The notes under the pieces were generated by a model that was not told the origin of the DNA, made no database searches, and saw nothing but the letters and a program-made list of their open reading frames with translations. 64,000 nucleotides of DNA from Candidatus Micrarchaeota archaeon (GTDB lineage Archaea; Micrarchaeota; Micrarchaeia; Micrarchaeales; CABMGC01): NCBI GenBank assembly GCA_021827925.1, contig JAKATZ010000024.1, forward strand, positions 4,726 to 68,725, given 5' to 3'. This document shows, in pieces, positions 29,754 through 63,549 of the stretch; position 1 is the stretch's first letter, and every line of letters begins with the position of its first letter. The position numbers and the translations under genes are program-made.

Positions 29754-29785
29754 GATATCTTACCCCTGGCTAAACATATAAGCAT

Positions 29786-30613: not shown

Positions 30614-31503
30614 ATCCCCTCTTCGATTGTCTTCTGCCGCAGGCGTTCGCTCACCGTTTCCACAGGTATCATGTAATCTGGCTCTGTGAAGTTTAGCATC
30701 TCGGATCCAGTGGCTATTGATGCGTTTACCCCAAGAGTGGCACTGATGCCTGCGGCGAGCTCTTCTGCCTGCTGAACCGCTATGTTTACCGCCTCCTCGT
30801 CGCTCCCGCCCATCGCAGTTAGCATTGCGTACGTAAACAGTGATTGCGAGTGCACTTCACTGACATTGTTCAGTAGGTTGCGCCACATCGTAACCTCTCC
30901 CCTTATGCGCTCTGAAACGCTCTTCGGCACCCCTTTTTTCGCCTCGCTCTCAGCGTATCTCTCTCCGGCCTCATTGAGCTTGTTCCTTATGCTGTTGATA
31001 TAATCGTCCTTGTTTATCACATAGAGCTGGGAGGAGATCTTGACGGGGGATTTTGTTAGGGCGAGTATCCTGCTGAAGAGTCTGGCAAAATCCGCTTTCT
31101 CCGCTGCGCTCATCTCGGTGGAGGATCTGTACACGGGAATCTTTATGAAAACTGAAGCGTAGGAGTTAGAACCTTCCTTCACTATCAGGGCATTGCCAGA
31201 AGGCGCCATGTAGAAAGGATCATCGGCGCTGAGAACCATGGCTCTGCCTTTCATGCGCAGCGCAGGCAGTACAAGATATGAATAGTACTTGGTTGAGAAT
31301 GCCACAACTGCTAGAAGAAGCGAGAGTATCCCGAATGCCACGTTTGCAAGTGGATAAGGTGTAGTGGATGCGACAAACGCGAACAGCAGGGCCGCGCCTA
31401 TAAATATCACGAATATCAATAGCTGCGAATTGGTTGGCAGTGTAGCACCTTCCTGTATGATCTCTGAATGGTAGGAGCATCCTTTTATACTTTTATACAG
31501 CAA
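30610..31503 (-). CDS. Bitopic (2-TM hairpin) protein with a ~200-aa soluble domain, same architecture as 29786..30613
   Basis: 297 aa with two N-terminal TM helices followed by a soluble domain. It overlaps the upstream gene by 11 nt. Confidence 0.65.
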   Translation of the reverse strand: MLYKSIKGCSYHSEIIQEGATLPTNSQLLIFVIFIGAALLFAFVASTTPYPLANVAFGILSLLLAVVAFSTKYYSYLVLPALRMKGRAMVLSADDPFYMAPSGNALIVKEGSNSYASVFIKIPVYRSSTEMSAAEKADFARLFSRILALTKSPVKISSQLYVINKDDYINSIRNKLNEAGERYAESEAKKGVPKSVSERIRGEVTMWRNLLNNVSEVHSQSLFTYAMLTAMGGSDEEAVNIAVQQAEELAAGISATLGVNASIATGSEMLNFTEPDYMIPVETVSERLRQKTIEEGI

Positions 31504-32593
31504 AAGCGCGCATCCTGCCGGAGAGCTGCGTCATCCCGCCTATGAATTCTGCAATCTGGCCTATGATAAGGTAGGTCACGCCGAGTATGAGCGCAGGATA
31601 GAAGAGCACAGAGAGCCAGTAGTCGCCCATGCTCGCCTGTATTCCGTCCAGGCCTTTCGTCACCAGGTTGGATGATGGCGAAGCAGCACCGAATATCGCG
31701 CCGCTCGTACCGCCGTACTGCTGCAGCTCGCTGCTTGCAATGACAGCCTGCTGCATCAGCTTAGGAGCTGTGGAGATTTCAGCGAAAGAAAATAGGACGG
31801 GCATCACGAAATAGAAGCCTATTGCTACGGCTATCATTATTCCCCCCAGGCCGCGGGTGGGAAGCACTGTGCGGAAGATCACCCCAGGTATGAGGAAAAC
31901 TGGTATTGCCATGTAAGAGAACAATAAGATCAGATAGAATTCACCGTAAAGCAGCATTATGCCGTCGAGCTGCAAGTCGACAATGGCCCATGCCGGCGTA
32001 TAGAAATACCATGTGGCCAGATACGCGAGCGGCTCTGTTATCGGTCTTATGCATAGGGGCAGGCATATCTCTGTCCTTATGCTTGTGTAGAACCTTACGG
32101 CTATTATTACCCTGAAGAGCTGATATACGCTGTTCTGCTCTGCGTTTATTGTATTGCTTATGTAGGTGAGGGACGAGGTATAAGGATTCCCGCTAAGCAC
32201 GAAGCTTGGGAGCAGGCCGAATATTATGCCGGCAATAGTGAGGAACATTATGACTATTATCGCGCTTGCCAGGGCTTCGTACATCTCCCCTATGCCGAAC
32301 GTTCTCAGGCGCTCATTGCGCAGGACTGTGCCCATAACGAAGATAAGTATGGCGATGAAGAAAGAGAGGAGCACCGCAAGGAAGGCGAGAGGCTCCCACT
32401 TTGTCCAGTTGGAGATCAGGGCCTGGTTTATCGACTGGGCGCCTTTCTGGCAGTACCATGGGGAGACTGCGTTTACTATCCCCGTCTTTGCGCAGTATTC
32501 ATATAGAGGCACGGCTGCGCCTGCTGCTGCCATGGTGCCGAAGACCAGAAGCGCGCACAGTATAAGAAATTTTTTCCTCTCCGTTTGTATCAC
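31493..32593 (-). CDS. Polytopic membrane protein, paralog F of a 6-member tandem family
   Basis: 366 aa with a signal-like N-terminus and multiple TM segments. The family motif is GVIFRTVLPTRGLGGIMIAVAIGFYFVMP. The upstream motif is ERLRTFGIGEMYEALASAIIV. Confidence 0.7.
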   Translation of the reverse strand: MIQTERKKFLILCALLVFGTMAAAGAAVPLYEYCAKTGIVNAVSPWYCQKGAQSINQALISNWTKWEPLAFLAVLLSFFIAILIFVMGTVLRNERLRTFGIGEMYEALASAIIVIMFLTIAGIIFGLLPSFVLSGNPYTSSLTYISNTINAEQNSVYQLFRVIIAVRFYTSIRTEICLPLCIRPITEPLAYLATWYFYTPAWAIVDLQLDGIMLLYGEFYLILLFSYMAIPVFLIPGVIFRTVLPTRGLGGIMIAVAIGFYFVMPVLFSFAEISTAPKLMQQAVIASSELQQYGGTSGAIFGAASPSSNLVTKGLDGIQASMGDYWLSVLFYPALILGVTYLIIGQIAEFIGGMTQLSGRMRAFAV

Positions 32594-33762
32594 CTGAGTA
32601 TTCCGGTCAGCATGGACAGGAAGTCCATGCGCTCGCCTATTGCCTGCGAGAAATCAATTATGAAAGTATCTACTATTATAAAGTTCAGTAGAGGCACAAA
32701 GACCAGCCCTATTATGATCAGCCCAAGATAAGTCATTACCGAGCCCATGTATACGGATAATGCATTCACGCCTATTGCTGCAGGGCACAGCGTGATGTCT
32801 ATGATGCATGCTGCAACTTCCAGCGGAGACTGCGGAATTAGTGAGTTAGGAAGCAGGAGGATTCCTGCTTTCGCAGCTGCAGGGAATACTTGGTTAAGTC
32901 CATAATCTATGAATCCGTAGGTCATGCTTACCATGAGCGGATATATGAGGCCTATGCCTAGCGCAAATGCTATCATTGAGCCGCCGAATGTGCGCGTTAT
33001 ACCAAATGTTCTGGCTATCAGTCCCAGGGCCATGAATATTGAGAATATAAGCACGGATGCCGAAAGCAGGACCAGCTGCACCTGATTCAGTATCATCATG
33101 CCATAAATGAATGCTATCGCAGGGCCGCTGTATTTGTAAACAGTGTTGGCAGGCAGCAGGGATATTGCCTTCGATCCTAGTGTGAATGAAAACAGTGCAG
33201 AGAATCCGGTGGGAACCCCGCTGGCAAGCTTTGAACTTAGGGAGAAGTCTAAAGAAGGAATCAACGAGGATACAAGAAGTGCGTAATAGAGATAGGAGTT
33301 AGCCTCACTGGTGAATACGTTGAAGGTGTACATGTCACATATGCCGAGTGAGTAGAAATTATTAGGAGTAACTCCGGAGGGATTCGATGCCTGTGGTACT
33401 GTAGGGTTTCCAGGAGTCGGAGAGCATTGAGGAGGCACTAGTCCGCCTATTACCAAGGCAGGAACAGGATTGGCAGTGCAGAGGACTGTCGAAAAGGAGG
33501 CAAATATCAGTATCAGCACTATGGAGAGAAGGACTTCGTATATCTTTATCCTCGTCCATGTGCGGATATCGCTCCTGCCAACAAAAGGGCTCAGCCCATA
33601 AACAACGGAAAGAACGGCTATGACAGCAAACACAGCAAGGACAACTACAGGAAACCAGGAGGTGTAAGGAGAAGTTAGGAAAGCGCTGACGCTGCTGGTG
33701 CAAGCGTTGACAATGCTAAGCATGAAAGGCAGCATCACACGGTAGTAAAGGAACTCTTCCAT
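32590..33762 (-). CDS. Polytopic membrane protein, paralog E
   Basis: 390 aa. The family motif is GLIARTFGITRTFGGSMIAFALGIGLIYP. The upstream motif is RTWTRIKIYEVLLSIVLI. Confidence 0.7.
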   Translation of the reverse strand: MEEFLYYRVMLPFMLSIVNACTSSVSAFLTSPYTSWFPVVVLAVFAVIAVLSVVYGLSPFVGRSDIRTWTRIKIYEVLLSIVLILIFASFSTVLCTANPVPALVIGGLVPPQCSPTPGNPTVPQASNPSGVTPNNFYSLGICDMYTFNVFTSEANSYLYYALLVSSLIPSLDFSLSSKLASGVPTGFSALFSFTLGSKAISLLPANTVYKYSGPAIAFIYGMMILNQVQLVLLSASVLIFSIFMALGLIARTFGITRTFGGSMIAFALGIGLIYPLMVSMTYGFIDYGLNQVFPAAAKAGILLLPNSLIPQSPLEVAACIIDITLCPAAIGVNALSVYMGSVMTYLGLIIIGLVFVPLLNFIIVDTFIIDFSQAIGERMDFLSMLTGILR

Positions 33763-35028
33763 TCAGATCAACTTGTTCATGAGCTTGCCGCTTTGCAGTG
33801 AAGGCGCGCCGAGTAGATCGCCGACCATCTCAAGCATGTCGTATGCCACTACAAACGCTATTCCGAAGCCGAGTACCTCTAGCGCGGAATCCGCAGCTCC
33901 TTGTGCAAATATCTGCAGTGTTATTATAAACGCATTACCCATAGCGACATTTGCCCCGCCTGGAGCTAGAAGCGAGAGCATCGCGGCGCCTAACTGATAT
34001 ATCCTACCGAGGGTTATTGAACCTGCGTCACCAGTGCAGAAAGCGATCTTTTGGGTTGAACTATTGCATACCGTGTTTTGTGATATCGTACTAGGAGTAG
34101 GCGCCAATGCAAGGAATGGGAACAATATTGAGGGGAATATTATGAAGAAAGATATGAAAAGAGCTATGAGTGATCCTCCCGCAGGCCTTGTCCATGGCAA
34201 TGACCTGAGCACAAGGCCGACGTAAAGAAAGAGGGGGAAGAGGAAGTAGAAGATGTAAAGCAGAAAGATCACGCCAATCCCCAGAAATAGGAAGAGGAAG
34301 ATTATTGCGGTCTGCAGGAACGTCACAGAGACCATAGGGCCTATGCCTTCAAAAGGCTGCACTGTGCCCTGTGGGATATAGTTTGATAGCGGACCCCCAA
34401 CGGAGAACGAGAAGTATGAGTTTTGAACTATCTCGAATGGTATCAGGAGTGCGAAGGTGCCGATTATGCTGAATAAGGATGGCGTGACCTGACTGTTCAT
34501 TATATTAGTACAGAGCGAAGAGTAGAGAGCAGTGACTCCGGAGCCTTCCGTTATGTGCGTTGTTGTAACCCCCAAGGCATCCGTGATATTTGAGAAAAAA
34601 TTGAGTGTGCTGTAGGCAAACGAGAGGCTTGCTGTGATCACAACCACTATTATTATGTTCAGTATCTGCTCCATGTATTCTGCCCTAACGAATGCCACGA
34701 GCTTGTGTATCCCGAAAGCCGCGCCTATCGCATACACCACAGATAGCACGATGAGAACCATTGTTACTATCAGCATTGAGAGGTCTATCAGATGCGAGTA
34801 TATCAAGGTGGAGCCAGCGGGGTTGAAGCTGTTTGTGACGATGTTGGGATTCGTATTTGCGAAGAGGGTATCGCAATATCCAGCAGATGCAGCGTTTACA
34901 AGGAAGAAAGATAGCATTGAGAATAGGGATATTGCAAGGAAGGCGCGCCTGCGTACCGTACTGTGAACTGCTTCGCGCTCACGGGCCGGCTTTCCGAAGT
35001 CCATATTAACAGTTCTTCTTTCTTTCAT
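33763..35028 (-). CDS. Polytopic membrane protein, paralog D
   Basis: 421 aa. The family motif is GLVLRSLPWTRPAGGSLIALFISFFIIFP. The upstream motif is VAFVRAEYMEQILNIIIV. Confidence 0.7.
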   Translation of the reverse strand: MKERRTVNMDFGKPAREREAVHSTVRRRAFLAISLFSMLSFFLVNAASAGYCDTLFANTNPNIVTNSFNPAGSTLIYSHLIDLSMLIVTMVLIVLSVVYAIGAAFGIHKLVAFVRAEYMEQILNIIIVVVITASLSFAYSTLNFFSNITDALGVTTTHITEGSGVTALYSSLCTNIMNSQVTPSLFSIIGTFALLIPFEIVQNSYFSFSVGGPLSNYIPQGTVQPFEGIGPMVSVTFLQTAIIFLFLFLGIGVIFLLYIFYFLFPLFLYVGLVLRSLPWTRPAGGSLIALFISFFIIFPSILFPFLALAPTPSTISQNTVCNSSTQKIAFCTGDAGSITLGRIYQLGAAMLSLLAPGGANVAMGNAFIITLQIFAQGAADSALEVLGFGIAFVVAYDMLEMVGDLLGAPSLQSGKLMNKLI

Positions 35029-36599
35029 ATAAGCCTACCTAGTCCTAGAAGGAAGGTGTCTCCTCCGAAAAGCGAGGATAGACCTTTCAGGCTTGCAAGC
35101 GTCAGCAGGATGTTGAGGATCGGGAGCACAATTCCGATCACAGATATTATCCCGTACATCTGCTCAAGACCGAATAACGTGTTTATGACCTCTTTCGGAT
35201 CGCAACCGAGATTATACGTGAGAAACTTGGGTGCACTCTGATATACATTTCCAATCAGTGCCGTAAGTGCAAGGTACTGACTGTATCCAGGTACAAGGTA
35301 TGAACCAGCATCCAGAAGTTCCTGCTGCAGAAGGTTGCTCCCTCCGCTAGAGCCGAATGGTATCGGCCAGCAGCCGTAGTAGTTTATTATGGATTCAGCG
35401 TTTGGAAATACGTAGAAGTTTATGTTCTTGGCGTAGTCCACACACGGTGTTCCTTTGTCAGTAAACCGAGGGCAGCTGCTGTCCCCAGGAGGCGTGCCGT
35501 TCAGATATAGGACAGGTATGACAGAAGGAGATGATGGCGATGGAGGAGAGCCGAGTATGGATGTGGTTGGCGCACCGGTTATTGGCATCCTGCTGCATGA
35601 GCCCGTAGTAGGACAGGTCAGCGAAACGTACTCGAACAGGTAGATGGTAGGGTAGATTATCACTGAGGCAAGGGCTATCGCTATCAGAAGGCCTCCGAGC
35701 CGGCGCGTTAGAAATGAGGCGCGCAGTATCACGCCTGCTGCTAACAGATACGGCCATGCGAAGAGCGCGAAGAGTATGGCCAGAAGCTGTATTTGGAACA
35801 TGTAGAACATCATTGTTGCCTGGGTGAGCACCGAAAACATTACCCCTCTGAACACAGTGTAAGCAGAATACGGCAGATAGGCTATCATCACCTGCCAGGT
35901 GTCAGGTATCTGGCTAGTCCCAGACGCCTGCAGATTCTGCACACCATTCTGTAGACAGAAGAGCTCAGGGAGGCAAGCGCCGCTTATTGGCTGCAGGGCG
36001 GAAAGATAGTTTGTATATCCCTCGAAGATGTAGACTGCGTTTATGTTCTCGGATATCTGCTCGGTAAGATTCGCGGTTATTAGATAGGTTGATGCAAGTC
36101 CGTAATCGAGATTGGCGGTCGCATCTGTCTTGCCGGCCTTGCTTATCAGACTCGAACATATGGTGTTTGTAGGAGTAACGGTAGACGGTGAGACGAGGGT
36201 TGGCGGCTCTATGTTGCCTACCAGCAGTATGTTGGCATTGTCGAGCTGACCACATATTTTGTTCACATTGCCTTGTGGTAAAGAAGAAAGTACGGCATAG
36301 AAAGTACTGCCATAGAAGTTCAGAACCATGAGTATTATTATGACCATTGCAACAGTACCTAGTGCCTGGCTGTATTCACTTATCGCATTTGCCTTTATGC
36401 GGCGGTTGTTCAGCAGATATCCTATTATGTAGTATATCAGCGTTATGCCTACTCCCAGAAGCGAAGCAAGAAGCACAAGTGGGAGCCAGCTGTTTAGCAC
36501 AGATACACTCGTTTCTACGGTTGGAGCTGCCGCGTGAAGTGAAGCGAAAAATACTGCAGATGTTACTGCCGCAAGATAGAGGCATAGTGAGCGTCGCAT
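35025..36599 (-). CDS. Polytopic membrane protein, paralog C (largest, with long extracytoplasmic inserts)
   Basis: 524 aa with signal peptide ...FFASLHAAAP. The family motif is GVILRASFLTRRLGGLLIAIALASVIIYP. The upstream motif is RIKANAISEYSQALGTVAMV. Confidence 0.7.
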   Translation of the reverse strand: MRRSLCLYLAAVTSAVFFASLHAAAPTVETSVSVLNSWLPLVLLASLLGVGITLIYYIIGYLLNNRRIKANAISEYSQALGTVAMVIIILMVLNFYGSTFYAVLSSLPQGNVNKICGQLDNANILLVGNIEPPTLVSPSTVTPTNTICSSLISKAGKTDATANLDYGLASTYLITANLTEQISENINAVYIFEGYTNYLSALQPISGACLPELFCLQNGVQNLQASGTSQIPDTWQVMIAYLPYSAYTVFRGVMFSVLTQATMMFYMFQIQLLAILFALFAWPYLLAAGVILRASFLTRRLGGLLIAIALASVIIYPTIYLFEYVSLTCPTTGSCSRMPITGAPTTSILGSPPSPSSPSVIPVLYLNGTPPGDSSCPRFTDKGTPCVDYAKNINFYVFPNAESIINYYGCWPIPFGSSGGSNLLQQELLDAGSYLVPGYSQYLALTALIGNVYQSAPKFLTYNLGCDPKEVINTLFGLEQMYGIISVIGIVLPILNILLTLASLKGLSSLFGGDTFLLGLGRLI

Positions 36600-37766
36600 T
36601 CATGCACCCCAGAAAGGACCTACGCCAATTATCGAAGACAATGAGTTGAGTCCCTTCGTGAACCCTATCGCAAATCCCACAGTCATCGCAAGATCTAACG
36701 CTATTAATACAATTCCCTCGAAGAAGTACGCGCCGACATCAGGCACGAATGAATTTATGATGTCAGGAAGATCAAAGAAACCTTTTATCAGGTTGATGTA
36801 GAATCCTGTTGTGCCGCTTTGCGCATATGAAAAGTAGTAGTTGAAGGGTACGCTGAGAGTTCCGTACCCGAATATGTTGGGAGCCTGGTTTGACGAGAAG
36901 AGGCTACTGACAGGTATGTTTGAAATCGGATATTTGCCAAGGTAAGCCGAGTAAGGATTGCATACTGTCCCTTTGTTTGTGCAGTAGAGCCAGCCAGTTA
37001 TGTAATAATTCATGGATATGGTCATGGGAAAAATGAAATATAAGGCTATGGCAAGGGCTATCACAGAATTTGCAGCCTCGCGGAGCCTGGGTCCCGAAAA
37101 GCTTATCGATCTTAGTATGACCGCAGTGGGTATCAGGGTTATTAGGGCAAATTGTTCTATTAGGGGCATGATGAAATACAGCGAGAAGAGTATACCGAAG
37201 GTAAGCATGATTATGCCAGTGAAAACTCCTGAAAACGTTGTAGCATAATCGTAGGCTATATAGACCAGCTCGCTGCCAGGCGACACGCCGAGGGAAAAGA
37301 AGGGCGTTGGTATCGAGAAGGAGGTGACTATGTTTGCAATTGCGCTGTCTAGATTTCCATCTATTATGAATGATATTCCCTCGGACCACACATTGGTTGC
37401 AAGTCCTATGCCCTTCGAGTATAGAAGATTATGCAGGTAGAGATGGGCAAACTGGTAAGGATCGAACTGCGCAGAGTTGCCAGTAAGCAGCGCTGCGGTA
37501 CTGCACATGGGAAGTGCGAAGGTTATCAATGAGACCACGAGAAGCATGCTTATCACACCCTGCACGAGCTCGTACCTGACAACTCCCCTCAGCCTTTCCC
37601 TTGTGGCTATTGGAAGGACACTCCCTACTGCATATATGAATGAAGAGATGGCCATCGTTGCTAACACTATAAGGGCTGTTGCTTCGATCCACTGTGGCCG
37701 GTATATTGCGCCGAACGTGCAGGTGGACTGGAAGAGTGAGGTTACGGCGAAGAAAAAATCCATCAT
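36600..37766 (-). CDS. Polytopic membrane protein, paralog B (most divergent motif)
   Basis: 388 aa. The motif is AVILRSISFSGPRLREAANSVIALAIALYFIFP, where GG is replaced and 2 residues are inserted. The upstream motif is RLRGVVRYELVQGVISMLLV. Confidence 0.65.
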   Translation of the reverse strand: MMDFFFAVTSLFQSTCTFGAIYRPQWIEATALIVLATMAISSFIYAVGSVLPIATRERLRGVVRYELVQGVISMLLVVSLITFALPMCSTAALLTGNSAQFDPYQFAHLYLHNLLYSKGIGLATNVWSEGISFIIDGNLDSAIANIVTSFSIPTPFFSLGVSPGSELVYIAYDYATTFSGVFTGIIMLTFGILFSLYFIMPLIEQFALITLIPTAVILRSISFSGPRLREAANSVIALAIALYFIFPMTISMNYYITGWLYCTNKGTVCNPYSAYLGKYPISNIPVSSLFSSNQAPNIFGYGTLSVPFNYYFSYAQSGTTGFYINLIKGFFDLPDIINSFVPDVGAYFFEGIVLIALDLAMTVGFAIGFTKGLNSLSSIIGVGPFWGA

Positions 37767-39173
37767 TCACACCAGCTTCAGCTTGCCGCCTATCTGCAGG
37801 CGTATCGTGCCGCCGAGCATCCTCGCGATGTTGTCTGTCATAGGGAATGCGATTATCGCGTCCAGAATGAACAGGAAGTAAGTCTGCAGCATTATGTAGA
37901 TGTTGTTTTGTATGACGAAGTTCATTGCAGGATAGGGATTGTAGATTGACTCGAATGCAATATTGTTTGTAACACCAACTATCAGAAGAGGATTTGAGGG
38001 AATCCCGGAAGGAGAGCATCCGTGCGAGGTTAGGAAGTTGAATACCTTGTTAAGGATTGTGGGAGAGTAGGTACTGCACGAATAAGCCGGAAGGTCTGTC
38101 GGCATCATGTTCGCCGCGCCAAGTACGTTTGAAAAATAATTGGATACAGGGGTGTTGAGAATGATTAGCAAGGAAGGCCAGATGATACTAATGCCTATCC
38201 CAAAAGCTATAAGTGTGCCGCCTATGCCCCTTATGAATGGGAATGCGCGCATAATCAAGCCCATAGGTATGAGAACAAGCAGGCCGATGCGTATCAGAAG
38301 AGGCAGGAGTACTATCTGGCCTATGAATACGGCCATCGCTGGCGTTTCGAGAAAAACCAATGCATCATTAAACACGGATACAAGCTGTACGTGATATATG
38401 AAATCGGATTGAAGGAAGAAATTCCCGAATATGATGAAGGATACCATTGACCTGAAGACTGGTATGAAATCAAGGGCCGCTGGAAGCGGAACAGGAGGTA
38501 CAGGAATCCCAGGAAAGACAAATGAAAGACCGGAATACACCCCGTTTCCAGCAAGTCCGTTGTTTTTCGTGCCGCTGAAAAGGGAACCTATGCTTGTAAG
38601 CTGGCTTGTGAAACCGCCGCCTCCGCCCAGCCCTCCTTTGAATAACCCGAATGAGAGGAAAAGGGAGATCATGTGCTTTATTCCGTACTCTATCTCACCC
38701 TCGGTGTTGCAAAGATATACCTCTGAGCCGTAAGTAAGCAGATCTGCATTGGCTATATAGGTAGGGGTTCCTGCGCGCAGGGAAGCGCGACCTGAAGCGG
38801 GTATGTTATTGCCAGCAGTTATCACGGCTATGTTGCCTATCAACGTGACTACTGAGAATATAGCTGCTACGAGCATCACAGACTTTGCGAACTCCCAGTA
38901 CTCATTGCCCAACCAACCGGAGATGCCCGCCGAGGGAAATAGCTTGCTCAGTATGTACCCTATGACTATCACATCGAAGGATATGAAAAGTGCGATTATG
39001 GATATGCCTATTGAAATCGCAGGGATCTTGAAGCCCAAGCCTATGTTGTTTGCTATGTTCCCGGGCTGACACTGACTGAGGCTTGATAGCGTAACAGAAG
39101 GAGCTGCGTTTAGTGTGCAGAGCATCATGAGAGAAGCTAGCAGCAGGAGGATGCCATGCCTTAAAGAGGGCAT
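37767..39173 (-). CDS. Polytopic membrane protein, paralog A
   Basis: 468 aa with signal peptide ...MLCTLNAAPS. The family motif is GLIMRAFPFIRGIGGTLIAFGIGISIIWP. The upstream motif is GNEYWEFAKSVMLVAAI. Confidence 0.7.
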   Translation of the reverse strand: MPSLRHGILLLLASLMMLCTLNAAPSVTLSSLSQCQPGNIANNIGLGFKIPAISIGISIIALFISFDVIVIGYILSKLFPSAGISGWLGNEYWEFAKSVMLVAAIFSVVTLIGNIAVITAGNNIPASGRASLRAGTPTYIANADLLTYGSEVYLCNTEGEIEYGIKHMISLFLSFGLFKGGLGGGGGFTSQLTSIGSLFSGTKNNGLAGNGVYSGLSFVFPGIPVPPVPLPAALDFIPVFRSMVSFIIFGNFFLQSDFIYHVQLVSVFNDALVFLETPAMAVFIGQIVLLPLLIRIGLLVLIPMGLIMRAFPFIRGIGGTLIAFGIGISIIWPSLLIILNTPVSNYFSNVLGAANMMPTDLPAYSCSTYSPTILNKVFNFLTSHGCSPSGIPSNPLLIVGVTNNIAFESIYNPYPAMNFVIQNNIYIMLQTYFLFILDAIIAFPMTDNIARMLGGTIRLQIGGKLKLV

Positions 39174-39232
39174 GTATTCTTCTTGACATCAACAGCTATA
39201 AATAAGGCGCGCATTACACACTGCATGCTCTG

Positions 39233-40687
39233 CTAGGTAAGGGGTGTGCTGTGGGTGCGCATACGGTAGTGGAAGAGACGCATTCTGGTGATCCCGCCTC
39301 CTGCATTCATTTCGGCTACGGGCTCGCCTCCTTCTAGCCATATCCTTCCGGTAGGTTTCAGTATAACCTGTCCTTTGCGTGGCCCTTCTGTTTCGCGCAG
39401 TATCTTGCCTTCGGCATTCATCATTGGCGCTATGACGAATGCTCTGCGTGGATTGAAGGAAACGCCGATCCGCATCTGAGTCCCTGGAAAAAGGCCGTGC
39501 CGGAGTTCAGCATGCTCGAATTCACCAGTAGTGACTACCCTACCCAGGGAACGGCCGTAAAACTGCGTTGTACGCGAGAGCCTGATGTGCCTTAGCTCGG
39601 TAAGCCGGCGTTGCAGCTGGTCGATGTGATCACTGTGCATCGCAGCGATGCTGTCTTCGCCTGAGGAGATGGCATTATTCCATGCCATTCTTGCGGCGCT
39701 CATCTGCCTCTGAAGAAGCGCTTGCTGCCTGTTGAAATCCCTAACCTCAAGAGTGCGCTCCCATTTATCCGCTATATCGCCCCACATCCTTGCATGGTAA
39801 TTAAGCGCACGTTTTTCCGCACCTTCGAATGAGGATCTCGCCGTCTCAATGCCTCCTATTATTCTCCGCATTCTCGCAGCGTATCTTCTTCTCTGGCGCT
39901 CGGTTCGTGCATTCATGAAGCCTTGATAAGCCCTATCCCGCCTATCATATAACCTTCCAAGGTATTGCATTCTGCGTTGCTTATATACAGCAAAATGGTA
40001 TCTGAGGTCCGCCTCGGCTCGCTTGCTTTGCGAGCCCTCGAATAACGTGCTTGTCGTACTCCTGAACGCTTGACTTGTTTCCCTTCTTCTCCCCCACTCT
40101 GCCTTCGCCGCGGAGATCCTCTGGCCTTTGCGCGCACGAATGCTGCTCCTTATCGGATTGTATATCACAGCCCAGCCGGAGGCGTTTTGCCTTCTCATAC
40201 CAGGCCAATTTAGCGGATTGAATCTCGAGAACCTAGTACTTGCGCCTCCTGCAGGGCCCTGTGGAATTCCATGCGGAGAGCTTGGCGCGCCGCTTGGAAG
40301 GGCAGAGGCCGGCGCCGCGCCTGCGGCTGCAGCCGCAAGTGCAACTTCAGAGGTAGGTATTGTGCTAGGACCTGAGGGTGGGCTACCTGCACCTGTGCCT
40401 CCGCTGCCGGACTTTCTGCCGAACGTCCAGCCGCTTTTGGCTCCCACAGTCCTCCTCAGGTTGGGATCGAGTATCGTCCTGAAAGGAAATGCAGACTTGC
40501 CGGAAAGGTTGCCCTTTGAGCTGGGAGTTATGCCTGCCAGCGTCGCTATTCCGAATATCGCGAATATGTTGAAGCCGCGCGTTGCGCCTGCAGCGGCGAG
40601 TATGAGTATCGCTATTATGAACAGAGGTATGAATGCGTTAATCGAGCCTATCGAGAGCAATATGTACAGCAACGTTGCCAGCAGCAT
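39233..40687 (-). CDS. First operon gene: N-terminal TM hairpin, Gly/Pro/Ala/Ser-rich linker, Arg-rich helical domain, C-terminal beta-like domain
   Basis: 484 aa. The N-terminus is LLATLLYILLSIGSINAFIPLFIIAILILAAAGA. The low-complexity stretch is SGSGGTGAGSPPSGPSTIP...AAAAAGAAPASALPSGAPSSP. A long R/Q/A-rich helical region follows. Confidence 0.65.
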   Translation of the reverse strand: MLLATLLYILLSIGSINAFIPLFIIAILILAAAGATRGFNIFAIFGIATLAGITPSSKGNLSGKSAFPFRTILDPNLRRTVGAKSGWTFGRKSGSGGTGAGSPPSGPSTIPTSEVALAAAAAGAAPASALPSGAPSSPHGIPQGPAGGASTRFSRFNPLNWPGMRRQNASGWAVIYNPIRSSIRARKGQRISAAKAEWGRRRETSQAFRSTTSTLFEGSQSKRAEADLRYHFAVYKQRRMQYLGRLYDRRDRAYQGFMNARTERQRRRYAARMRRIIGGIETARSSFEGAEKRALNYHARMWGDIADKWERTLEVRDFNRQQALLQRQMSAARMAWNNAISSGEDSIAAMHSDHIDQLQRRLTELRHIRLSRTTQFYGRSLGRVVTTGEFEHAELRHGLFPGTQMRIGVSFNPRRAFVIAPMMNAEGKILRETEGPRKGQVILKPTGRIWLEGGEPVAEMNAGGGITRMRLFHYRMRTHSTPLT

Positions 40688-54423: not shown

Positions 54424-55380
54424 TTGATGGAAACGGGGAACGTTGCCGAAGGCTGGAGGACAGAAATAGCAGGCGTGATAGTTGCAGTTGCCGATCTTAT
54501 AGCAAGGATCATACTCTCTGAAGTCGAGGCCGCGAGGGAGAAGCAGAACATTCTCGCAAAGATGTACATGAAGCTAGAGCAGGATAAGCTTGAGAAGGCG
54601 ATGGCGCCGTACATAGGCGCAGTGGTTTTCCTCTCTTTTACAGGCAAGGAAGTGAACGGAAAGAGCATCGAGGGCATAGTAAGGTCGGCAGGAATAGAAC
54701 CGGAAGACAGGTTTCTGAAATTCGCGGCATCGCTTAATTTTGAGAACAGCATCATAGCATATGCACCTGCAGTATACTTCTTGAAAGTGGTGAGGAGGGA
54801 GATCACCGCAGAAAACGTGATGGCAGTAGTAGGCGCAATGGGAAAGAGCACCGACGAGAAGATAGCAAGACACGTGCTGGATATCTACAGTATGCAGAGC
54901 GCAGCAAGCAAGAAGAGCGCAGAGATAGGATTCGAGGAGAGGATGATAAGCTCGGTTAGGGAAGCTGCGACCATGCTCTCTAAGATAATGCTGATAGAGC
55001 TTGACAGGACCTTCGAGAAGAAGGACATCGCAGACCATATAGGGAAGGGATTCATACCTTACCTCGCAGCGGTAGGTACGCTAGTGTATGCCGGAGAGGA
55101 CATAGATGCGGTTGGTGCGGAGAAATTCTATAGATACATAGCAGCGATGGTTGAGGCAGTTGGGGTCGCCGCTGACAAGTCGATGCTTGAGTACGTATCG
55201 TCATTCAACTACGGCAGCTCCGGGTTCGTGTATGTCTCTGCCGCATATTACCTGAAATCAATTGGCATGAATGTGGATATACGACAGGTCATGGCCGTTG
55301 TAGCGGCATCCGGAGAGAATCCGGATGAGGCTACCGCGGGCTTTGTATTGACAATATACAAGGATTACAACAAGGTATAA
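54424..55380 (+). CDS. Protein built from four ribosomal-stalk-P1(N-terminal domain)-like half-repeats (two double units)
   Basis: 318 aa; the ATG is at 54427. YIGAVVFLSFTGKEVNGKSIEGIVRSAGIEPEDRFLKFAASL aligns position for position with my recollection of archaeal P1 (Y..AALLL...GKEI....I..VL.AAGVEVDE......AL). A second unit begins at YLAAVGTLVYAGEDID. There is no acidic stalk tail. Confidence 0.55.
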   Translation: MMETGNVAEGWRTEIAGVIVAVADLIARIILSEVEAAREKQNILAKMYMKLEQDKLEKAMAPYIGAVVFLSFTGKEVNGKSIEGIVRSAGIEPEDRFLKFAASLNFENSIIAYAPAVYFLKVVRREITAENVMAVVGAMGKSTDEKIARHVLDIYSMQSAASKKSAEIGFEERMISSVREAATMLSKIMLIELDRTFEKKDIADHIGKGFIPYLAAVGTLVYAGEDIDAVGAEKFYRYIAAMVEAVGVAADKSMLEYVSSFNYGSSGFVYVSAAYYLKSIGMNVDIRQVMAVVAASGENPDEATAGFVLTIYKDYNKV

Positions 55381-55404: not shown

Positions 55405-56118
55405 ATGGCTTCAGCAAAGACACAGGTCAACAAGATAAGCACAGGGGTTGTGGGCCTTGATGAGATGCTCTACGGAGGCATACCCGAGGGCAACCAGATG
55501 CTCATGGCCGGAGATGCGGGAACCGGAAAGACGCTGATGTCTTTCGAGATGCTGTACAGGAACGCGAACATAAATATACCGAGTACGTTCATAACACTCG
55601 AGGAGGGAAGGAAGTCGCTGCTCGAGAATGTTAAGGGAGCGTTCTCGTACTTTGATGACATCGACGACCTTGTGGATAGGAATATGATAACTGTAACTGA
55701 GCAGAAGGTAGTGGAGGCATTCAAATCGAGGGAGAGCCTGCAGTCGTTCATAGTGGGCATAAACAGGATAATTCAGGCAAACAGCTCAAGAATAGTTGTC
55801 TTTGACTCTATCTCGCCCATAAGGCCGCTGATAGACAGTGACAGGACGTTCACGCGGGCGATAAGCCAGATGATAGAGAACTTCAGGAACCTGGGCGTGA
55901 CTAGCATAGTCAACGTGGAGACTGCTTCGCCAACGCTCACAGAGGTTGCAGGGCTTTATGGCACGTACATGTTCGATGGGATAGTCAAGCTCAGCACTTA
56001 CAAGGAGCAGAACAGTTTTCAGTACCTGATTACCGTTGTCAAGATGAGGAGGTCGAATCACAAGAACAGCTCGATGCCTTTCGAGATAACGCCGAAGGGC
56101 TTCAACATATTCAGATAG
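55405..56118 (+). CDS. KaiC/RecA-superfamily single-domain ATPase (ArlH/KaiC-like), copy 1
   Basis: 237 aa. TGVVGLDEMLYGGIPEG is present, Walker A is GDAGTGKT and Walker B is IVVFDSI. KMRRSNH is the typical KaiC-like C-terminal motif. Confidence 0.85.
   Translation: MASAKTQVNKISTGVVGLDEMLYGGIPEGNQMLMAGDAGTGKTLMSFEMLYRNANINIPSTFITLEEGRKSLLENVKGAFSYFDDIDDLVDRNMITVTEQKVVEAFKSRESLQSFIVGINRIIQANSSRIVVFDSISPIRPLIDSDRTFTRAISQMIENFRNLGVTSIVNVETASPTLTEVAGLYGTYMFDGIVKLSTYKEQNSFQYLITVVKMRRSNHKNSSMPFEITPKGFNIFR
55450..55676 (+). repeat. Near-identical nucleotide block shared with 56986..57212 (KaiC-like copies 1 and 3)
   Basis: Compared base by base: about 227 nt with roughly 15 mismatches, including a perfect run of about 70 nt. 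The first 50 nt (55450..55499) are identical between copies 1 and 3, and a 33-nt core of that stretch (gctctacggaggcatacccgagggcaaccagat) also occurs in copy 2 at about 56236. Confidence 0.8.
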
Positions 56119-56158
56119 TTTTGAAGATGGAAAGACGTGGTATAAAAATATAAAAGCT

Positions 56159-56932
56159 TTGTGTGATATTAAGATTCCTGCCAGTGATTTGATGCGAGAA
56201 AGGATAGAAACGGGGATAGGGGGTATAGACCGTATGCTCTACGGAGGCATACCCGAGGGCAACCAGATAGTCATAGCAGGAGGTCCTGGTTCGGGAAAAA
56301 CTCTCCTCTGTTTCGAGTATCTTTACAACAACGCGATCAACGGGCAGATAGGGCTCTTCATCTCACTTGAGGAAGACACCGGGCTCATAATAGAGAATGC
56401 GAAGGAGGCATTCTCGGATTTCAAAGACATAGACAAAATGATAGCAGACAAGAAGATAGTCGTGCATGGGGCTAATGACACGAGATCGTACATACAGCGC
56501 GATGCCCAGGGATCATCTTACACATTCGGAAAGTTCGTCACCGAAATAGAGTCTTTGATAGAATCCACTAACGCCACGCGCGTTGTGATAGACTCGGTAT
56601 CGATAATAAAGCTTCTTATGAAGGATCCTTTCGAATACAGGAACACTTCGATGAGCCTTGTCGCGGTGTTGAGGAGGTCCAAGGTAACCGCGCTGCTTAC
56701 GATGGAGATAGAATCCTCGGAGAAGAACAAGCTGATATTCCAGCCGGAATTCTTTATATACGATGGCATAATAATAATGTATTCAAGCGCGGGGGAGGGA
56801 GGTAGCAGGATACCTACGATGGAGATAATTAAAATGAGAGGCTCGAACCACAGTTTCGCTACGGTGCCTTATGAAATAACCGCGGGTGGGATCAACCTCA
56901 TGCTGCTCGCCGAAAGGCGCGCTGACGGATAG
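56159..56932 (+). CDS. KaiC/RecA-superfamily single-domain ATPase, copy 2 (divergent)
   Basis: 257 aa with a TTG start, verified. Walker A is GGPGSGKT and Walker B is RVVIDSV. KMRGSNH is present. Confidence 0.8.
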   Translation: MCDIKIPASDLMRERIETGIGGIDRMLYGGIPEGNQIVIAGGPGSGKTLLCFEYLYNNAINGQIGLFISLEEDTGLIIENAKEAFSDFKDIDKMIADKKIVVHGANDTRSYIQRDAQGSSYTFGKFVTEIESLIESTNATRVVIDSVSIIKLLMKDPFEYRNTSMSLVAVLRRSKVTALLTMEIESSEKNKLIFQPEFFIYDGIIIMYSSAGEGGSRIPTMEIIKMRGSNHSFATVPYEITAGGINLMLLAERRADG

Positions 56933-56940
56933 ATGATGCG

Positions 56941-57654
56941 ATGGCAGCCGAGAACAAGATAGTAAACAGGATGAACACAGGGATAGTGGGCCTTGATGAG
57001 ATGCTCTACGGAGGCATACCCGAGGGCAACCAGATACTGATTGCGGGAGATGCAGGAACCGGAAAGACGCTGATGTCTTTCGAGATGCTGTACAGGAACG
57101 CGAACATAAATATACCGAGTACGTTTGTAACTCTTGAGGAGGGAAGGAAGTCGCTGCTCGAGAATGTTAAGGGAGCGTTCTCATATTTTGACAATATCGA
57201 CGATCTTGTGGAGAACAATACGATATCGATATCGGAACAGACAGCTATGAGCGCATTCAGATCGAAGGAAAGCTGGCAGACGTTCATAGTAGGCATAAAC
57301 AGGGTGCTGAAGGAAAACAACTCGAAGATACTGGTAGTGGATTCGCTTGCTCCGCTCAGGCCTCTTGCGGAGGATGACAGGACGTTCACGCGGGCGATAA
57401 ACCAGATGATAGAGAACTTCAGGAACCTGGGGATAACGAGTATCATAAATATGGAGACGTCATCAATGAACCTCACTGAGGTTTCAGGCCTTTACGGAAC
57501 GTTCATGTTCGATGGGATAATAAGACTTGGCACCTTCTACATGGAAGGCAGCTTCCAGTACCTGGTTACCGTTGTCAAGATGAGGAGGTCGAATCACAAG
57601 AACAGCTCGATGCCTTTCGAGATAACGCCGAAGGGGCTTAACGTATTTAGATAG
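56941..57654 (+). CDS. KaiC/RecA-superfamily single-domain ATPase, copy 3 (recent duplicate of copy 1)
   Basis: 237 aa, colinear with copy 1 at a constant offset of 1536 nt. It has the same Walker motifs. Confidence 0.85.
   Translation: MAAENKIVNRMNTGIVGLDEMLYGGIPEGNQILIAGDAGTGKTLMSFEMLYRNANINIPSTFVTLEEGRKSLLENVKGAFSYFDNIDDLVENNTISISEQTAMSAFRSKESWQTFIVGINRVLKENNSKILVVDSLAPLRPLAEDDRTFTRAINQMIENFRNLGITSIINMETSSMNLTEVSGLYGTFMFDGIIRLGTFYMEGSFQYLVTVVKMRRSNHKNSSMPFEITPKGLNVFR
56986..57212 (+). repeat. Partner of the repeat at 55450..55676
   Basis: See the partner entry. Further identical patches lie at about 55839..55895 vs 57375..57431 and 56032..56099 vs 57568..57635. Confidence 0.8.
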
Positions 57655-60128: not shown

Positions 60129-60839
60129 TTACTCTCCCCACATCTCGGCCTTGATGCTCTTCTCCTCTACTCCGAGAGAGATCAGTGCATCCTTCAGGGC
60201 TCTTACGAATGCCGGAGGGCCGCATATGTAGCTTATGCGTTCCTTGAAATCCGGCACATCCCTCTTTATCATGTCCGCATTCACGTGCCCTGTTTCCCCT
60301 TTCCAGATATCGTTCTCCCTCGGCCTTGTTACAGTGACGGTAGTCCTAAGGCCGTCTTCCAGCTCCATCCCCTTCAGTTCGTCAGCATAGATTATTTCGT
60401 CGGAATACTTGACGCTGTACATGAGGCTGCAGTCGAGCTTCTTACCAACGCTTTTTGCGTATCGCAGCATTGAAAGGAATGGCGCTATCCCCGTTCCTCC
60501 TGCGAGAAAGAGGAATTTGGTTCCTGAGTTTATCTCGAATTTGAACTGGCCGTAAGGAGCAGAAAGAAGATACACGTCGCCGAGCTTTGCAGCCTCCAGT
60601 TTCGAAGTCAGCCTGCCGTGTATGAGCGCTATCAGGAACTCGAATCTGTCGGCAGGGGGTGAATTTGCCATCGAGAAAGCCCTGGCGATGCTCTCTTTCT
60701 CGTCCTTATACTGAAGCATAGCAAACATTCCAGGCACAAAATCCACGCTGGTGCCATCCTTTGCCCTGAATACAAAAGAGGTTACTAGTGGTGTCAGTCG
60801 GGTTATTTTCTCCAGAACATAGGATTTGTTAAGTATCAT
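60129..60839 (-). CDS. FNR-like FAD/NAD(P)-binding oxidoreductase
   Basis: FVPGMFAMLQY, RAFSMANSP (the R.YS-type FAD motif) and LFLAGGTGIAPFLSML are present. Confidence 0.75.
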   Translation of the reverse strand: MILNKSYVLEKITRLTPLVTSFVFRAKDGTSVDFVPGMFAMLQYKDEKESIARAFSMANSPPADRFEFLIALIHGRLTSKLEAAKLGDVYLLSAPYGQFKFEINSGTKFLFLAGGTGIAPFLSMLRYAKSVGKKLDCSLMYSVKYSDEIIYADELKGMELEDGLRTTVTVTRPRENDIWKGETGHVNADMIKRDVPDFKERISYICGPPAFVRALKDALISLGVEEKSIKAEMWGE

Positions 60840-60932: not shown

Positions 60933-61271
60933 TCATTGCGTGCTCTTTATGCCGGTGAAGCCCTCCACGGCCTTCTCGAACTTCTCGAGCGCCTTTATGA
61001 TCTCCTTAAGTTTTGGATTTATGTTGTATCCGAGATCGTAGCCGCGCTCTGTACGGATGTGAGTAGGCTGCAGTATGTTAAGGTTCATTGAGAGATTCCT
61101 TAGGGTCAGTATCAGGGTTTTGCGGGTAAAACTCTTGCCGAGCAAAGTGTATAGTTCGCGGGTCGTCCTCGGCGACTTGATCATTAGCAGCTTCAGGACG
61201 GCATAATTCGGCTTGCTCAGAAGCTTCCTTATCATCCATACTCCGTCGTCGTCCTTTTCGCGCTTTGCCAT
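60933..61271 (-). CDS. Small winged-helix transcriptional regulator (tentative)
   Basis: 112 aa. YAVLKLLMIKSPRTTRELYTLLGKSFTRKTLILTLRNL looks like a wHTH. Confidence 0.5.
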   Translation of the reverse strand: MAKREKDDDGVWMIRKLLSKPNYAVLKLLMIKSPRTTRELYTLLGKSFTRKTLILTLRNLSMNLNILQPTHIRTERGYDLGYNINPKLKEIIKALEKFEKAVEGFTGIKSTQ

Positions 61272-61438
61272 GCTTGCACCCGATTGCGATAGTATTGAAA
61301 CGCCAAGTTTTATAAATGTATATTTATTTTATTGAGGTCTACTTTTTTTATTGGGCTAAACTATTTTTAGAAAAGTATAAAAACTTTTGTCCGCTTTAAT
61401 ACCATAATAAAATATACTTAAGTATATGAGAAGATACC

Positions 61439-62971
61439 ATGATAAAAGAAATTGTTGACTCTGCACTCGGAATGTTTTACGGAATGGCATTACAGGATGG
61501 GAAAAGTGCCGGGATGGGATTTTCTGTCGGAGCTCCGGCAGAGATCGGACAGGGGCAGCGCACGGCGGCGGGACCCGTAGAAAGGCGCTTCGTGCAGACA
61601 GGGGATACTTACGCGTATTCCATCGGCAGCGGCGCTGTCACCTGGCAGGAAATGAAGCTGATGGCGGTTGCAAAGACGAGGGTGAGAGAAAGGATCGCCG
61701 ACGCTGATTCGCATTGTCATGGCTTCTTTACGAAAGCGTCTGATCTGGCTAATGAGGCGCTGAATGAACTCGGCTGTCACGAGGAGGCGCGCTGGCTCTC
61801 TTATTTAATAGCGCACGACATGGCAGGATACGGCCCCATAAGCATATTGCTTGAGGACAGGGATAATATAGCAGGTGTGGAAGTTAAATCCGCTTTTTCG
61901 CCGATATTGGTGCTTTCGAAAAACCATGGGAGGTGCTTGACAAATCTCCGTTTTGCAGGAGAAGAGGCCTTCAGGAGTACTATGAACAGATTCGTACTCG
62001 AGAATGGAAGAGGTCTAGGGCAGGAAGGCGTGGAAATCGATGTGAGGATAAGAGATGCCATACCGCATGCGCTGGCAGGACCTTATGCGGGAAGAGGGCC
62101 CGCTGCCTCGATAATGACAGGCAGGAACATGGGAGCAGAGAATATCCTGCTTGACGGAACGGCAAGCCCGGATGTCATTGCATACCTATGGATTGCACTT
62201 GAGTCAAGAATGAACGTTATTGTTTCAGGCGGGCGTGCTAGCGGAAAGTCGGCTTTGATTTCAGCACTGGCGGGCTTCTTACCAAGGCATAGCAGACTAG
62301 CAGTGATCGGAAATCGGACCGATGAACCATTACCCATGGGACCTCTTTTCTGCGTTGCGTCTGTTGATGGGTCTGGATACGGGAATATCGATACGGGAGA
62401 ACAGGTGGCTGAATTGCTTGGGACAGGACCGGATAGGATGATCTTCGGTGAGGTCAGGGGAAGGGAGGCTGCAGCGCTTTTCTCAGGAGCAAATGAGGGA
62501 GTGCCATTTATAACCACTGTGCGCAGTGATGAAGGAGGACTTTCTCTGCCGGTAATGCTCAACGCAAAGCCCATATGCATAGGACCGGTGGCGCTGAGCA
62601 TGCTCGATCTTTCGGTGCACATGATGCGGACAGATCCAGAAACTGTACACATCGCTTCCATATCCGAGTACCTCTGGCTGAGCAGGGCGGAGACCGAGTG
62701 CGGATCGGATATCGGCAATGGAGATTCTGTTGAAGAGTTGCCGCTGCTTGAATACGGCACGTTCGGAAAAAACCTGGAAAGATCGAAGGTCTTGAAGGCG
62801 TATTCAAGAATGATGGGGGTAGGGATTGCATACGCAGTTGCAGAGCAGAAAGCCAGGGCTGATGCGATAAGGAAAGCGTTGGATGAGAAAGATAGCAGGG
62901 ATGGCCTGAAAAGGCTTGTCTCACATCATCTCGGCCTCATGAGCAGGAGGTACGATCAGCCAGTCGAATGA
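61439..62971 (+). CDS. Divergent type II/IV secretion-family ATPase (FlaI/ArlI-VirB11-PilB class)
   Basis: 510 aa. Walker A is SGGRASGKSA, and the Walker B region GPDRMIFGEVRGREAAALF is typical of the family. The Asp-box (IGNRTDEPL) and His-box (ITTVRSD) positions look degenerate. Confidence 0.7.
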   Translation: MIKEIVDSALGMFYGMALQDGKSAGMGFSVGAPAEIGQGQRTAAGPVERRFVQTGDTYAYSIGSGAVTWQEMKLMAVAKTRVRERIADADSHCHGFFTKASDLANEALNELGCHEEARWLSYLIAHDMAGYGPISILLEDRDNIAGVEVKSAFSPILVLSKNHGRCLTNLRFAGEEAFRSTMNRFVLENGRGLGQEGVEIDVRIRDAIPHALAGPYAGRGPAASIMTGRNMGAENILLDGTASPDVIAYLWIALESRMNVIVSGGRASGKSALISALAGFLPRHSRLAVIGNRTDEPLPMGPLFCVASVDGSGYGNIDTGEQVAELLGTGPDRMIFGEVRGREAAALFSGANEGVPFITTVRSDEGGLSLPVMLNAKPICIGPVALSMLDLSVHMMRTDPETVHIASISEYLWLSRAETECGSDIGNGDSVEELPLLEYGTFGKNLERSKVLKAYSRMMGVGIAYAVAEQKARADAIRKALDEKDSRDGLKRLVSHHLGLMSRRYDQPVE

Positions 62972-63057
62972 AGCCATAGGTATGCAAGGTTTTTCACGCG
63001 AATTTATAAATGGTGCGCGTGTATTATCCTAAGTATAAGGTTTGGGGTGTCGCATAG

Positions 63058-63549
63058 TTGGAAGTATCTGACCCAATCGCGAGCAATGCTCAGTTAAGCC
63101 AGCAGGGGAGTGCGCCAGACGGTGAGAAGAAACTTGAGGCGATGGTAAGATCGCTGGCAGTACTGATGGCGAAAATCTCGCTGAGGGAGACAAGTAGGGC
63201 ATTCGAGGATGGAGGGGTCAAGGATTATCAAGACAGGATAGTACCGTACCTCGCTGCTGTGGACATGCTAGCCTTCACAGGCAGGGACATAGATTCTGAG
63301 GGCATAATAAAGCTGGTAAGATCCATAGGAATAATACCTGAAAGCAATATGGTGGATAAGGTCATAGCGCTTAGATTCAAGAACAGCCTCGTTTATGCCT
63401 CTGCGGTGTACTTCCTTGTTTCGGCAGGCAAGGAGCCCACGGTCGACATGATACTGCTCGTGATAAGGGCACTTGATATGCACCCTGATTCAAGCCTTGC
63501 AGGGTACGCAATAACCCTCTACAGGCTTTATAAGGATGCGAGCTTGTAG
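63058..63549 (+). CDS. P1(N-terminal domain)-like double-repeat protein, paralog of 54424..55380
   Basis: 163 aa with a TTG start. YLAAVDMLAFTGRDIDSEGIIKLVRSIGIIPESNMVDKVIALRF and YASAVYFLVSAGKEPTVDMILLVIRALDMHPD repeat the unit seen at 54424..55380. A TATA-like aatttataaatgg lies around 63001..63013. Confidence 0.55.
   Translation: MEVSDPIASNAQLSQQGSAPDGEKKLEAMVRSLAVLMAKISLRETSRAFEDGGVKDYQDRIVPYLAAVDMLAFTGRDIDSEGIIKLVRSIGIIPESNMVDKVIALRFKNSLVYASAVYFLVSAGKEPTVDMILLVIRALDMHPDSSLAGYAITLYRLYKDASL

Follow-up and report, generated by a model that had tools for sequence, protein, structure and literature searches.

An orphaned, motif-degenerate pilus-type ATPase at a Micrarchaeota locus that lacks the pilus-like operon of its relatives

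Operons that resemble those of type IV pili, in which an ATPase is encoded together with TadC and pilin genes, have already been described for archaea, including the DPANN archaea (PMC4858521, PMC6393860). Here we describe an ATPase gene that appears to come from such an operon and now stands without it. The gene lies in a 64,000-nucleotide stretch of DNA from a Candidatus Micrarchaeota archaeon (GCA_021827925.1, contig JAKATZ010000024.1, positions 4,726 to 68,725), and by the window we mean this whole 64-kb stretch. The gene is orthologous by synteny to the ATPase genes of pilus-like loci in other Micrarchaeota. The rest of the operon has been lost from the locus, specific catalytic residues have been replaced and the protein has diverged in excess of its relatives. 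The explanation that we favour, and consider reasonably likely, is that the ATPase is an orphaned leftover of a Micrarchaeota pilus-like operon, with eroded residues, probably retained for a non-motor role. The gene and its immediate surroundings are:

61439..62971, + strand: degenerate secretion-superfamily ATPase, 510 aa (open reading frame (ORF) list; Pfam T2SSE; PDB 2oap match; synteny)
60933..61271, - strand: p112, a conserved 112-aa gene divergent from the ATPase and a synteny anchor (homologs in the same position at other loci)
60129..60839, - strand: FNR-like oxidoreductase, the second upstream synteny anchor (homologs upstream of p112, 45-69% identity)
61272..61438, no strand: AT-rich spacer between the divergent p112 and ATPase genes, containing several TATA-like stretches and presumed to serve as promoter
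63058..63549, + strand: P1-like one-unit protein, 163 aa (ORF list; paralogy; 3a1y profile match; AlphaFold2 and Foldseek)

Judged by its profile matches, the product of 61439..62971 is a PilB/GspE2/FlaI-superfamily ATPase with degenerate motifs. It barely passes the Pfam T2SSE model (PF00437; gathering threshold 24.9) with 28.1 bits, which is about one third of the 72-89 bits that intact orthologs obtain. It falls short of the cut-offs of the narrower families, with 64.6 bits for the FlaI/ArlI equivalog (NCBIfam NF058587, cut-off 550), 49.5 bits for the VirB11 equivalog (TIGR02788, cut-off 249.95) and 77 bits for the TadA type (TIGR03819, cut-off 373). The intact orthologs also fail the FlaI cut-off, at 139-156 bits. 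Among proteins of solved structure the best relatives are GspE2 of Archaeoglobus fulgidus (2OAP, E 1e-21), CpaF (E 8e-17) and FlaI (E 6e-10). The relatives returned by a protein search (P0002-P0024, about 24) are 35-42% identical to the window protein and all belong to the Micrarchaeota.

Each of these three systems is informative as a comparison. With GspE2 the window protein shares a length of about 510 aa and the layout of an N-terminal domain followed by a RecA-like core, and a profile of the Micrarchaeota clade matches 2OAP with an E-value of 2e-55. Unlike the pilus ATPases of the GspE2/FlaI clade, the window gene has no TadC or pilin partner at its locus, and its arginine finger, trans-acting arginine, His-box histidine and two Asp-box acids are replaced. 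CpaF/TadA, the motor of the bacterial Tad pilus (PDB 8RJF, 9E24), can be aligned with it across the N2 domain and the ATPase core. The equivalents of CpaF K287, E312, E357 and R359 are kept, whereas R223, R347 and H382 correspond to I208, G328 and R362. The archaellum motor FlaI/ArlI belongs to the same superfamily. In that motor ArlI is bound by ArlH, and the window holds KaiC-like single-domain ATPases less than 4 kb from the gene. However, no archaellin, ArlF, ArlG, ArlJ, ArlX or ArlH gene is found at any orthologous locus, which carry pilins and TadC instead, and archaellins and ArlF, ArlG, ArlH and ArlJ are likewise absent from the window. The original prediction had called the gene ArlI-like, an assignment that we abandon given these operons and the distance of its score from the FlaI cut-off.

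In order to place the gene in its evolutionary context we scanned the GTDB representative genomes, which added 80 ATPase loci, nearly all labelled as Micrarchaeota or archaeal metagenome-assembled genomes (MAGs). Synteny was counted over 88 loci. The gene order of the orthologs is p112 in divergent orientation, the ATPase, two membrane-protein genes (about 210-280 aa), a major pilin and further pilin-like genes, and these operons also encode a protein of about 430 aa. A divergent p112 homolog precedes the ATPase in 78 of the 88 loci (median identity 75%, range 57-86%), and an FNR-like gene that is up to 69% identical to its window counterpart lies further upstream in 52 loci. In nearly every locus with enough flank, the platform genes and the major pilin follow directly downstream. 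The platform genes are, by similarity, split TadB/C-like genes; one of those in locus L004 matches Pfam T2SSF with 25.5 bits (gathering threshold 25.2). The major pilin is small and conserved and carries a class-III-type signal, 'RKAQSSLEYIMM'. From its gene content, the orthologous locus is a type IV pilus-like operon and not an archaellum locus. Since the upstream synteny of p112 and the FNR-like gene is conserved, the window ATPase is the positional ortholog of the ATPases that head these operons.

The anchor p112 (60933..61271) is of some interest in itself. It is better conserved than the S15, S3Ae and aminoacyl-tRNA synthetase of the same genomes, and is kept where the operon has been lost. 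No match was found in Pfam, NCBIfam or the PDB sequences, and a profile search against the PDB gave nothing meaningful. To the eye the protein is helical and resembles a winged helix-turn-helix; a single-sequence model had a predicted local distance difference test score (pLDDT) of 52 and was unusable.

The platform and pilin genes that follow the ATPase in its relatives are missing from the window locus. Neither the window, of whose ORFs not all were scanned against Pfam, nor the next 10 kb on the extended contig (L001) yielded a platform, pilin or prepilin-peptidase-like gene. A tblastn search of both, for which three relatives supplied 23 platform and pilin proteins as queries, gave nothing better than an E-value of 0.04, and a scan for the class III signal motif had no match, although the same scan recovered the pilins of control loci. 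The place of the relatives' platform and pilin genes is taken by the P1-like gene 63058..63549, and downstream of the ATPase L001, which reaches 10 kb past the window end, encodes this P1-like protein, an isochorismatase, a ferredoxin-like protein, an aminoacyl-tRNA synthetase, S15 and S3Ae. Among the loci compared, the operon is missing only from the window genome and from one other, L072. The original prediction of an orphan ATPase without platform, pilin or prepilin peptidase genes is thus borne out over this range.

The aminoacyl-tRNA synthetase-S15-S3Ae block lies downstream of the ATPase in this genome (L001 8230..11674), and upstream on the opposite strand in L009, L010, L077 and L072. 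Its relocation with respect to the closest relatives implies that a rearrangement accompanied or followed the loss of the operon. The arrangement itself is real. Three metagenome assemblies, independent of one another, carry the ATPase and its neighbours in the same order, with DNA that is 99.8-99.9% identical, and we therefore reject an assembly artefact as its cause.

We then compared the catalytic motifs in an alignment of about 78 distinct members of the Micrarchaeota clade. Residue equivalences were taken from a profile alignment of the window protein to CpaF, afGspE and FlaI, and residue roles from CpaF and PilB structures (PMC11300603, PMC5424180). All of the roughly 78 other distinct members keep every motif, namely R208, the 'SIR' arginine, GxPA[ST]GKT, [IV]E[ED][DE]xxE, L[RH]xRP, GExR[GAD] and T[MLI]H; the only two that break them are the window protein and that of L072. 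The motif regions of the window gene are:

62228..62251, + strand: Walker A GGRASGKS, aa 264-271; agrees with GxxxxGK[ST], K270 kept (clade consensus GxPASGKT)
62042..62116, + strand: N2-domain strand region with the arginine fingers; R208I and R226M lost, Q203R gained (CpaF R217 position)
62306..62326, + strand: Asp box IGNRTDE, aa 290-296; E291G and D293R lost, E296 kept
62414..62467, + strand: LLGTGPDRMIFGEVRGRE, region of the trans-acting arginine and Walker B; R328G and R330G, with E338 and R340 kept
62498..62530, + strand: His box GVPFITTVRSD, aa 354-364; H362R

The P-loop lysine K270 is in place, as is E296, the Mg-coordinating last glutamate of the Asp box (CpaF E312, PilB E357). The Walker B reads FGEVRG and so agrees with GE[IV]R[DG], with E338 and R340 (CpaF E357 and R359) retained. 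The Walker A and the family-typical motif named in the original prediction are both present, the latter as GPDRMIFGEVRGRE at aa 330-343. The losses include residues that contact the phosphates or couple subunits. In the N2 domain, R208I removes the equivalent of the CpaF R223 arginine finger, and R226M falls in the invariant 'SIR' strand and presumably removes the second finger. R328G removes the trans-acting arginine that stabilises the gamma-phosphate (CpaF R347, FlaI R326). H362R removes the gamma-phosphate-contacting histidine (CpaF H382, PilB H420), which all of the roughly 78 relatives keep.

The degeneracy of the Asp and His boxes that had been proposed from the sequence holds in part. 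IGNRTDE stands where the family has 'IEEDxNE', and the first glutamate and the aspartate are indeed lost (E291G, D293R), whereas the Mg-coordinating E296 is not. 'TTVRSD' stands where the family has 'TTMHS', and H362R is the only loss in the His box that is private to the window protein; the first histidine is missing from the whole clade, which has G[IV]PF instead of GH. The Asp box of the whole Micrarchaeota ATPase clade similarly has a one-residue insertion (IE-E-DxNE). In this alignment the missing first histidine and the insertion, which are seen in the ATPases of L004-L088 and in that of the window, are clade traits and not degeneration. Four of the replacements described above, R208I, R226M, R328G and R330G, come in addition to what had been proposed. 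A catalytically attenuated enzyme was likewise proposed, which we rate as very probable, as the residues that contact phosphate or couple subunits in the CpaF, PilB and FlaI structures are replaced. The protein can probably still bind nucleotide, with weak hydrolysis or none.

The divergence of the protein extends beyond its motifs. There are 63 alignment columns that are at least 95% conserved in 77 relatives; the window protein deviates at 17 of these and the L072 protein at 26, where the median relative deviates at one and the most deviant at six. This is far beyond chance. As a rough baseline for the rate of evolution, we used pairs of genomes whose neighbouring FNR-like proteins are 60-75% identical. 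The ATPases of ordinary pairs are then 46% identical (minimum 36%), compared with 35% for the window protein and 29% for that of L072.

The second orphan provides a useful comparison:

DAHXKV010000009.1 3914..5443, + strand: L072 orphan ATPase, 509 aa, an intact ORF in a related MAG

Where pilus genes would be expected, L072 has an ABC transporter on the opposite strand. Its ATPase scores 16.6 bits with T2SSE, under the threshold of 24.9, and is more degenerate still: the P-loop is GPAASQKA (G269Q), the Walker B region SECTP and the His box ASASW. It keeps the arginines, and its Walker A and Walker B consensus residues are gone. The two proteins share the derived residues E146G, I147V and E291G and are sisters in a neighbour-joining tree. 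No second ATPase of the family from this MAG is among the 80 loci kept from the genome scan. Despite a mutual identity of 32%, the two ORFs are uninterrupted over 509-510 codons, and both proteins retain in full the non-catalytic signatures of the clade (GRCxTNLRF, EYxW(L/M)SRxETE, the C-terminal SK and E..R).

In order to gauge the persistence of these ORFs we ran simulations in which an intact gene of the family accumulated only their excess divergence, by neutral point substitution and without indels. An open ORF survived in 0.25% of runs for the window gene and in less than 0.05% for L072. Intact ORFs in the window genome and in the more degenerate L072 are therefore unlikely under neutral decay, which makes a retained non-motor role likely. 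A ratio of nonsynonymous to synonymous rates has too thin a basis here, as the close sequences differ at three sites and all others are at most 42% identical and saturated. These strain polymorphisms are at window positions 61715, 62098 and 62426 and include C93S and one synonymous change. At 62426 the window has the allele G330, and the clade-invariant R330 is present in three other assemblies. The population differences are two nonsynonymous and one synonymous in the ATPase and two and seven in the adjacent 5.7 kb, numbers that are small and anecdotal.

Taken together, these results suggest the following history. The operon of the relatives consists of a divergent p112, the ATPase, two TadB/C-like platform genes, a class III pilin and further pilin-like genes. 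Its platform and pilin genes have been lost from the locus in the window lineage, leaving the P1-like gene, the isochorismatase gene and the relocated aminoacyl-tRNA synthetase-S15-S3Ae block downstream of the ATPase. Without a motor job the ATPase would have evolved faster, losing the arginine finger, the trans-acting arginine, the His-box histidine and two Asp-box acids while keeping the P-loop lysine, the Mg-coordinating glutamate and the Walker B glutamate. From the persistence of the ORF, we consider it probable that the protein continues to be made and serves in a role other than that of a motor.

Several observations weigh against this history. Elsewhere in the genome there could be a second intact ATPase, or the platform and pilin genes. 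The retention of K270, E296, E338 and R340, together with the arginine gained at the CpaF R217 position, could leave residual ATPase activity. The baseline for excess divergence is rough, as the identity of the FNR-like proteins predicts that of the ATPases weakly (slope 0.29). The excess of active-site losses over losses at other conserved columns is significant for L072 (17 of 29 against 9 of 34, p = 0.012) and not for the window protein (9 of 29 against 8 of 34, p = 0.58), and we therefore do not claim selective erosion for the latter. Finally, the sister grouping of the two orphans could reflect long-branch attraction.

The alternative that survives best is that the gene is a pseudogene in waiting, functionless since the loss of the operon and still open because little time has elapsed. 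We regard this as unlikely, yet it is the rival to be taken most seriously. Lost catalytic residues and accelerated divergence speak for it, and the further degradation of L072, with Walker A and Walker B consensus residues lost, is in keeping with it. So are the variation of R330G between near-identical strains and the two-to-one excess of nonsynonymous over synonymous changes in the ATPase. Against this stand the uninterrupted ORFs of both orphans, the at most 0.25% of simulated neutral runs that leave an ORF open and the full retention of the non-catalytic signatures.

A stronger form of the retained-leftover explanation is more tentative still. The protein would be a pseudo-enzyme kept by selection in at least two Micrarchaeota lineages, a nucleotide-binding, hydrolysis-impaired PilB/FlaI-like hexamer with a sensor or scaffold role. 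A possible partner is the unusually conserved p112; the KaiC-like or P1-like proteins are less likely candidates.

It is improbable that the ATPase is still a working pilus motor whose platform and pilin genes have been relocated within the genome. The Walker A lysine, the Mg-coordinating glutamate and the Walker B glutamate are kept, and archaeal pilins often stand alone, with ATPase/TadC pairs that can serve different pilin sets (PMC4858521). That said, TadC-like genes lie directly downstream in cis in essentially all of the roughly 78 relatives, and the lost arginine finger, trans-acting arginine and His-box histidine are completely or highly conserved throughout the superfamily. In L072 the P-loop itself is broken, and no second family ATPase from that MAG is among the 80 loci.

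The original prediction went further and combined the ATPase with other genes of the window, listed here:

54424..55380, + strand: P1-like two-unit paralog, 318 aa, upstream of the KaiC-like triplet and unlinked to the ATPase (ORF list; paralogy)
55405..57654, + strand: KaiC-like triplet, three genes

The triplet, the ATPase and the two P1-like proteins were proposed to form one functional set, a divergent regulatory module of the ArlH/ArlI type. The idea had precedent, as KaiC-family ATPases occur near type IV pilus loci in several other archaeal clades (PMC4858521), and in this one genome a P1-like paralog adjoins each of the two ATPase types. In the Micrarchaeota clade it is unsupported. 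The triplet lies about 3.8 kb from the ATPase, with five genes of mixed orientation between them, and its proteins score 50.9, 31.3 and 46.4 bits with the ArlH model (NCBIfam NF052589, cut-off 215); they match generic archaeal KaiC models best, again without reaching the cut-offs. Neither a KaiC-like nor a P1-like gene is present at any of the 80 other ATPase loci within flanks of up to 8 kb on each side where the contig allowed, and neither is found near the L072 ATPase. Conversely, at six P1-like loci in other genomes, where the genes stand alone or in tandem arrays of their own, there is no KaiC-like or T2SSE gene within 6-8 kb. Since P1-like genes occur independently of both ATPase types, which the original prediction had itself named as evidence against it, such a module is very unlikely, the binding of ArlH to ArlI in the archaellum notwithstanding. 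In the triplet the two outer genes share about 74% protein and about 83% DNA identity, with the middle gene more divergent, which indicates a recent duplication.

The P1-like proteins themselves are a real family. In agreement with its description as a one-unit paralog, the 163-aa protein can be aligned to either half of the 318-aa protein (E 2e-23 and 1e-20). An exhaustive profile search gave 162 cluster representatives in one-unit and two-unit forms, and the family profile matches the N-terminal domain of Pyrococcus P1 (3A1Y) with an E-value of 9.5e-8. An AlphaFold2 model of the 163-aa protein has a pLDDT of 88, and its top Foldseek match is 3a1y_A (probability 0.99, TMt 0.70, root-mean-square deviation 0.6 A over 42 residues). 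Going by this model and the profile, the product of 63058..63549 is P1-like, with the fold and sequence of the N-terminal dimerisation domain. The proteins are a multi-copy Micrarchaeota family with tandem P1 N-terminal-domain repeats behind a long helix.

Each unit holds two repeats that resemble the N-terminal dimerisation domain of the ribosomal stalk protein P1. Unlike P1, the family has no hinge and no acidic C-terminal tail, has an extra long N-terminal helix, is multi-copy and is not encoded after L10/P0. With the NCBIfam model ribo_P1_arch (cut-off 100) the 163-aa protein has no match and the 318-aa protein 32 bits. We rejected 63058..63549 as ribosomal P1, since its sequence ends ...YRLYKDASL, without an acidic tail, and a genuine P1 is encoded separately, after L10 (L091). 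The automatic name given to these proteins in IMG is ribosomal L12E/RPP1/RPP2. Examples of P1-like loci and arrays are L092 990..4381 (four in a row), L093 6001..8192 and L094 6001..8683. We found no description of the family in the literature consulted, and a pattern scan of metagenomes gave 600 pattern matches, none of which was confirmed.

The ATPase and P1-like ORFs are both at the positions originally predicted, as is the 86-nt gap between them. The P1-like gene has its own TATA-like box in this gap (TTTATAAAT at 63003..63011) and is regarded as independent of the adjacent ATPase gene. The ATPase stop codon is followed by a T5 run. Inside the ATPase gene there is a 225-aa antisense ORF (62083..62760, - strand); it is absent from the gene calls of the public contigs and probably a shadow ORF. 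Between 53 and 64 kb of the window, neither an Rfam scan nor a tRNA scan gave a match.

Elsewhere in the window there is a large minus-strand operon, 28248..40687, with ten genes. Nine encode membrane proteins (two to nine hydrophobic segments) without a Pfam match, and a HerA/DUF87/TraG-like ATPase (28248..29753, - strand) also belongs to it. The suggestion that the proposed set might serve this operon found no backing: we detected no link between the two, and the operon has an ATPase of its own and no pilin-like signals.

The loss of an operon in a reduced genome is an ordinary event, and the mildly interesting twist is that the ATPase ORF has been kept in two lineages. The locus offers a synteny-dated case of what becomes of a motor ATPase after filament loss in a reduced-genome DPANN archaeon. 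The pattern is one in which the operon disappears from the locus, each lineage loses catalytic and coupling residues in an order of its own, and the ORF persists. If that persistence reflects function, the protein is a candidate pseudo-ATPase that descends from a pilus motor; a retained pseudo-enzyme of this kind, if true, would mean that a type IV filament ATPase has been put to a use other than that of a motor. For annotators there is a warning, as the gene should not be named FlaI or ArlI, nor should motility or a KaiC-coupled motor be inferred from this ATPase. Finally, the loss of the pilus-like operon in some lineages bears on host attachment in the Micrarchaeota, which are presumed to be ectosymbionts.

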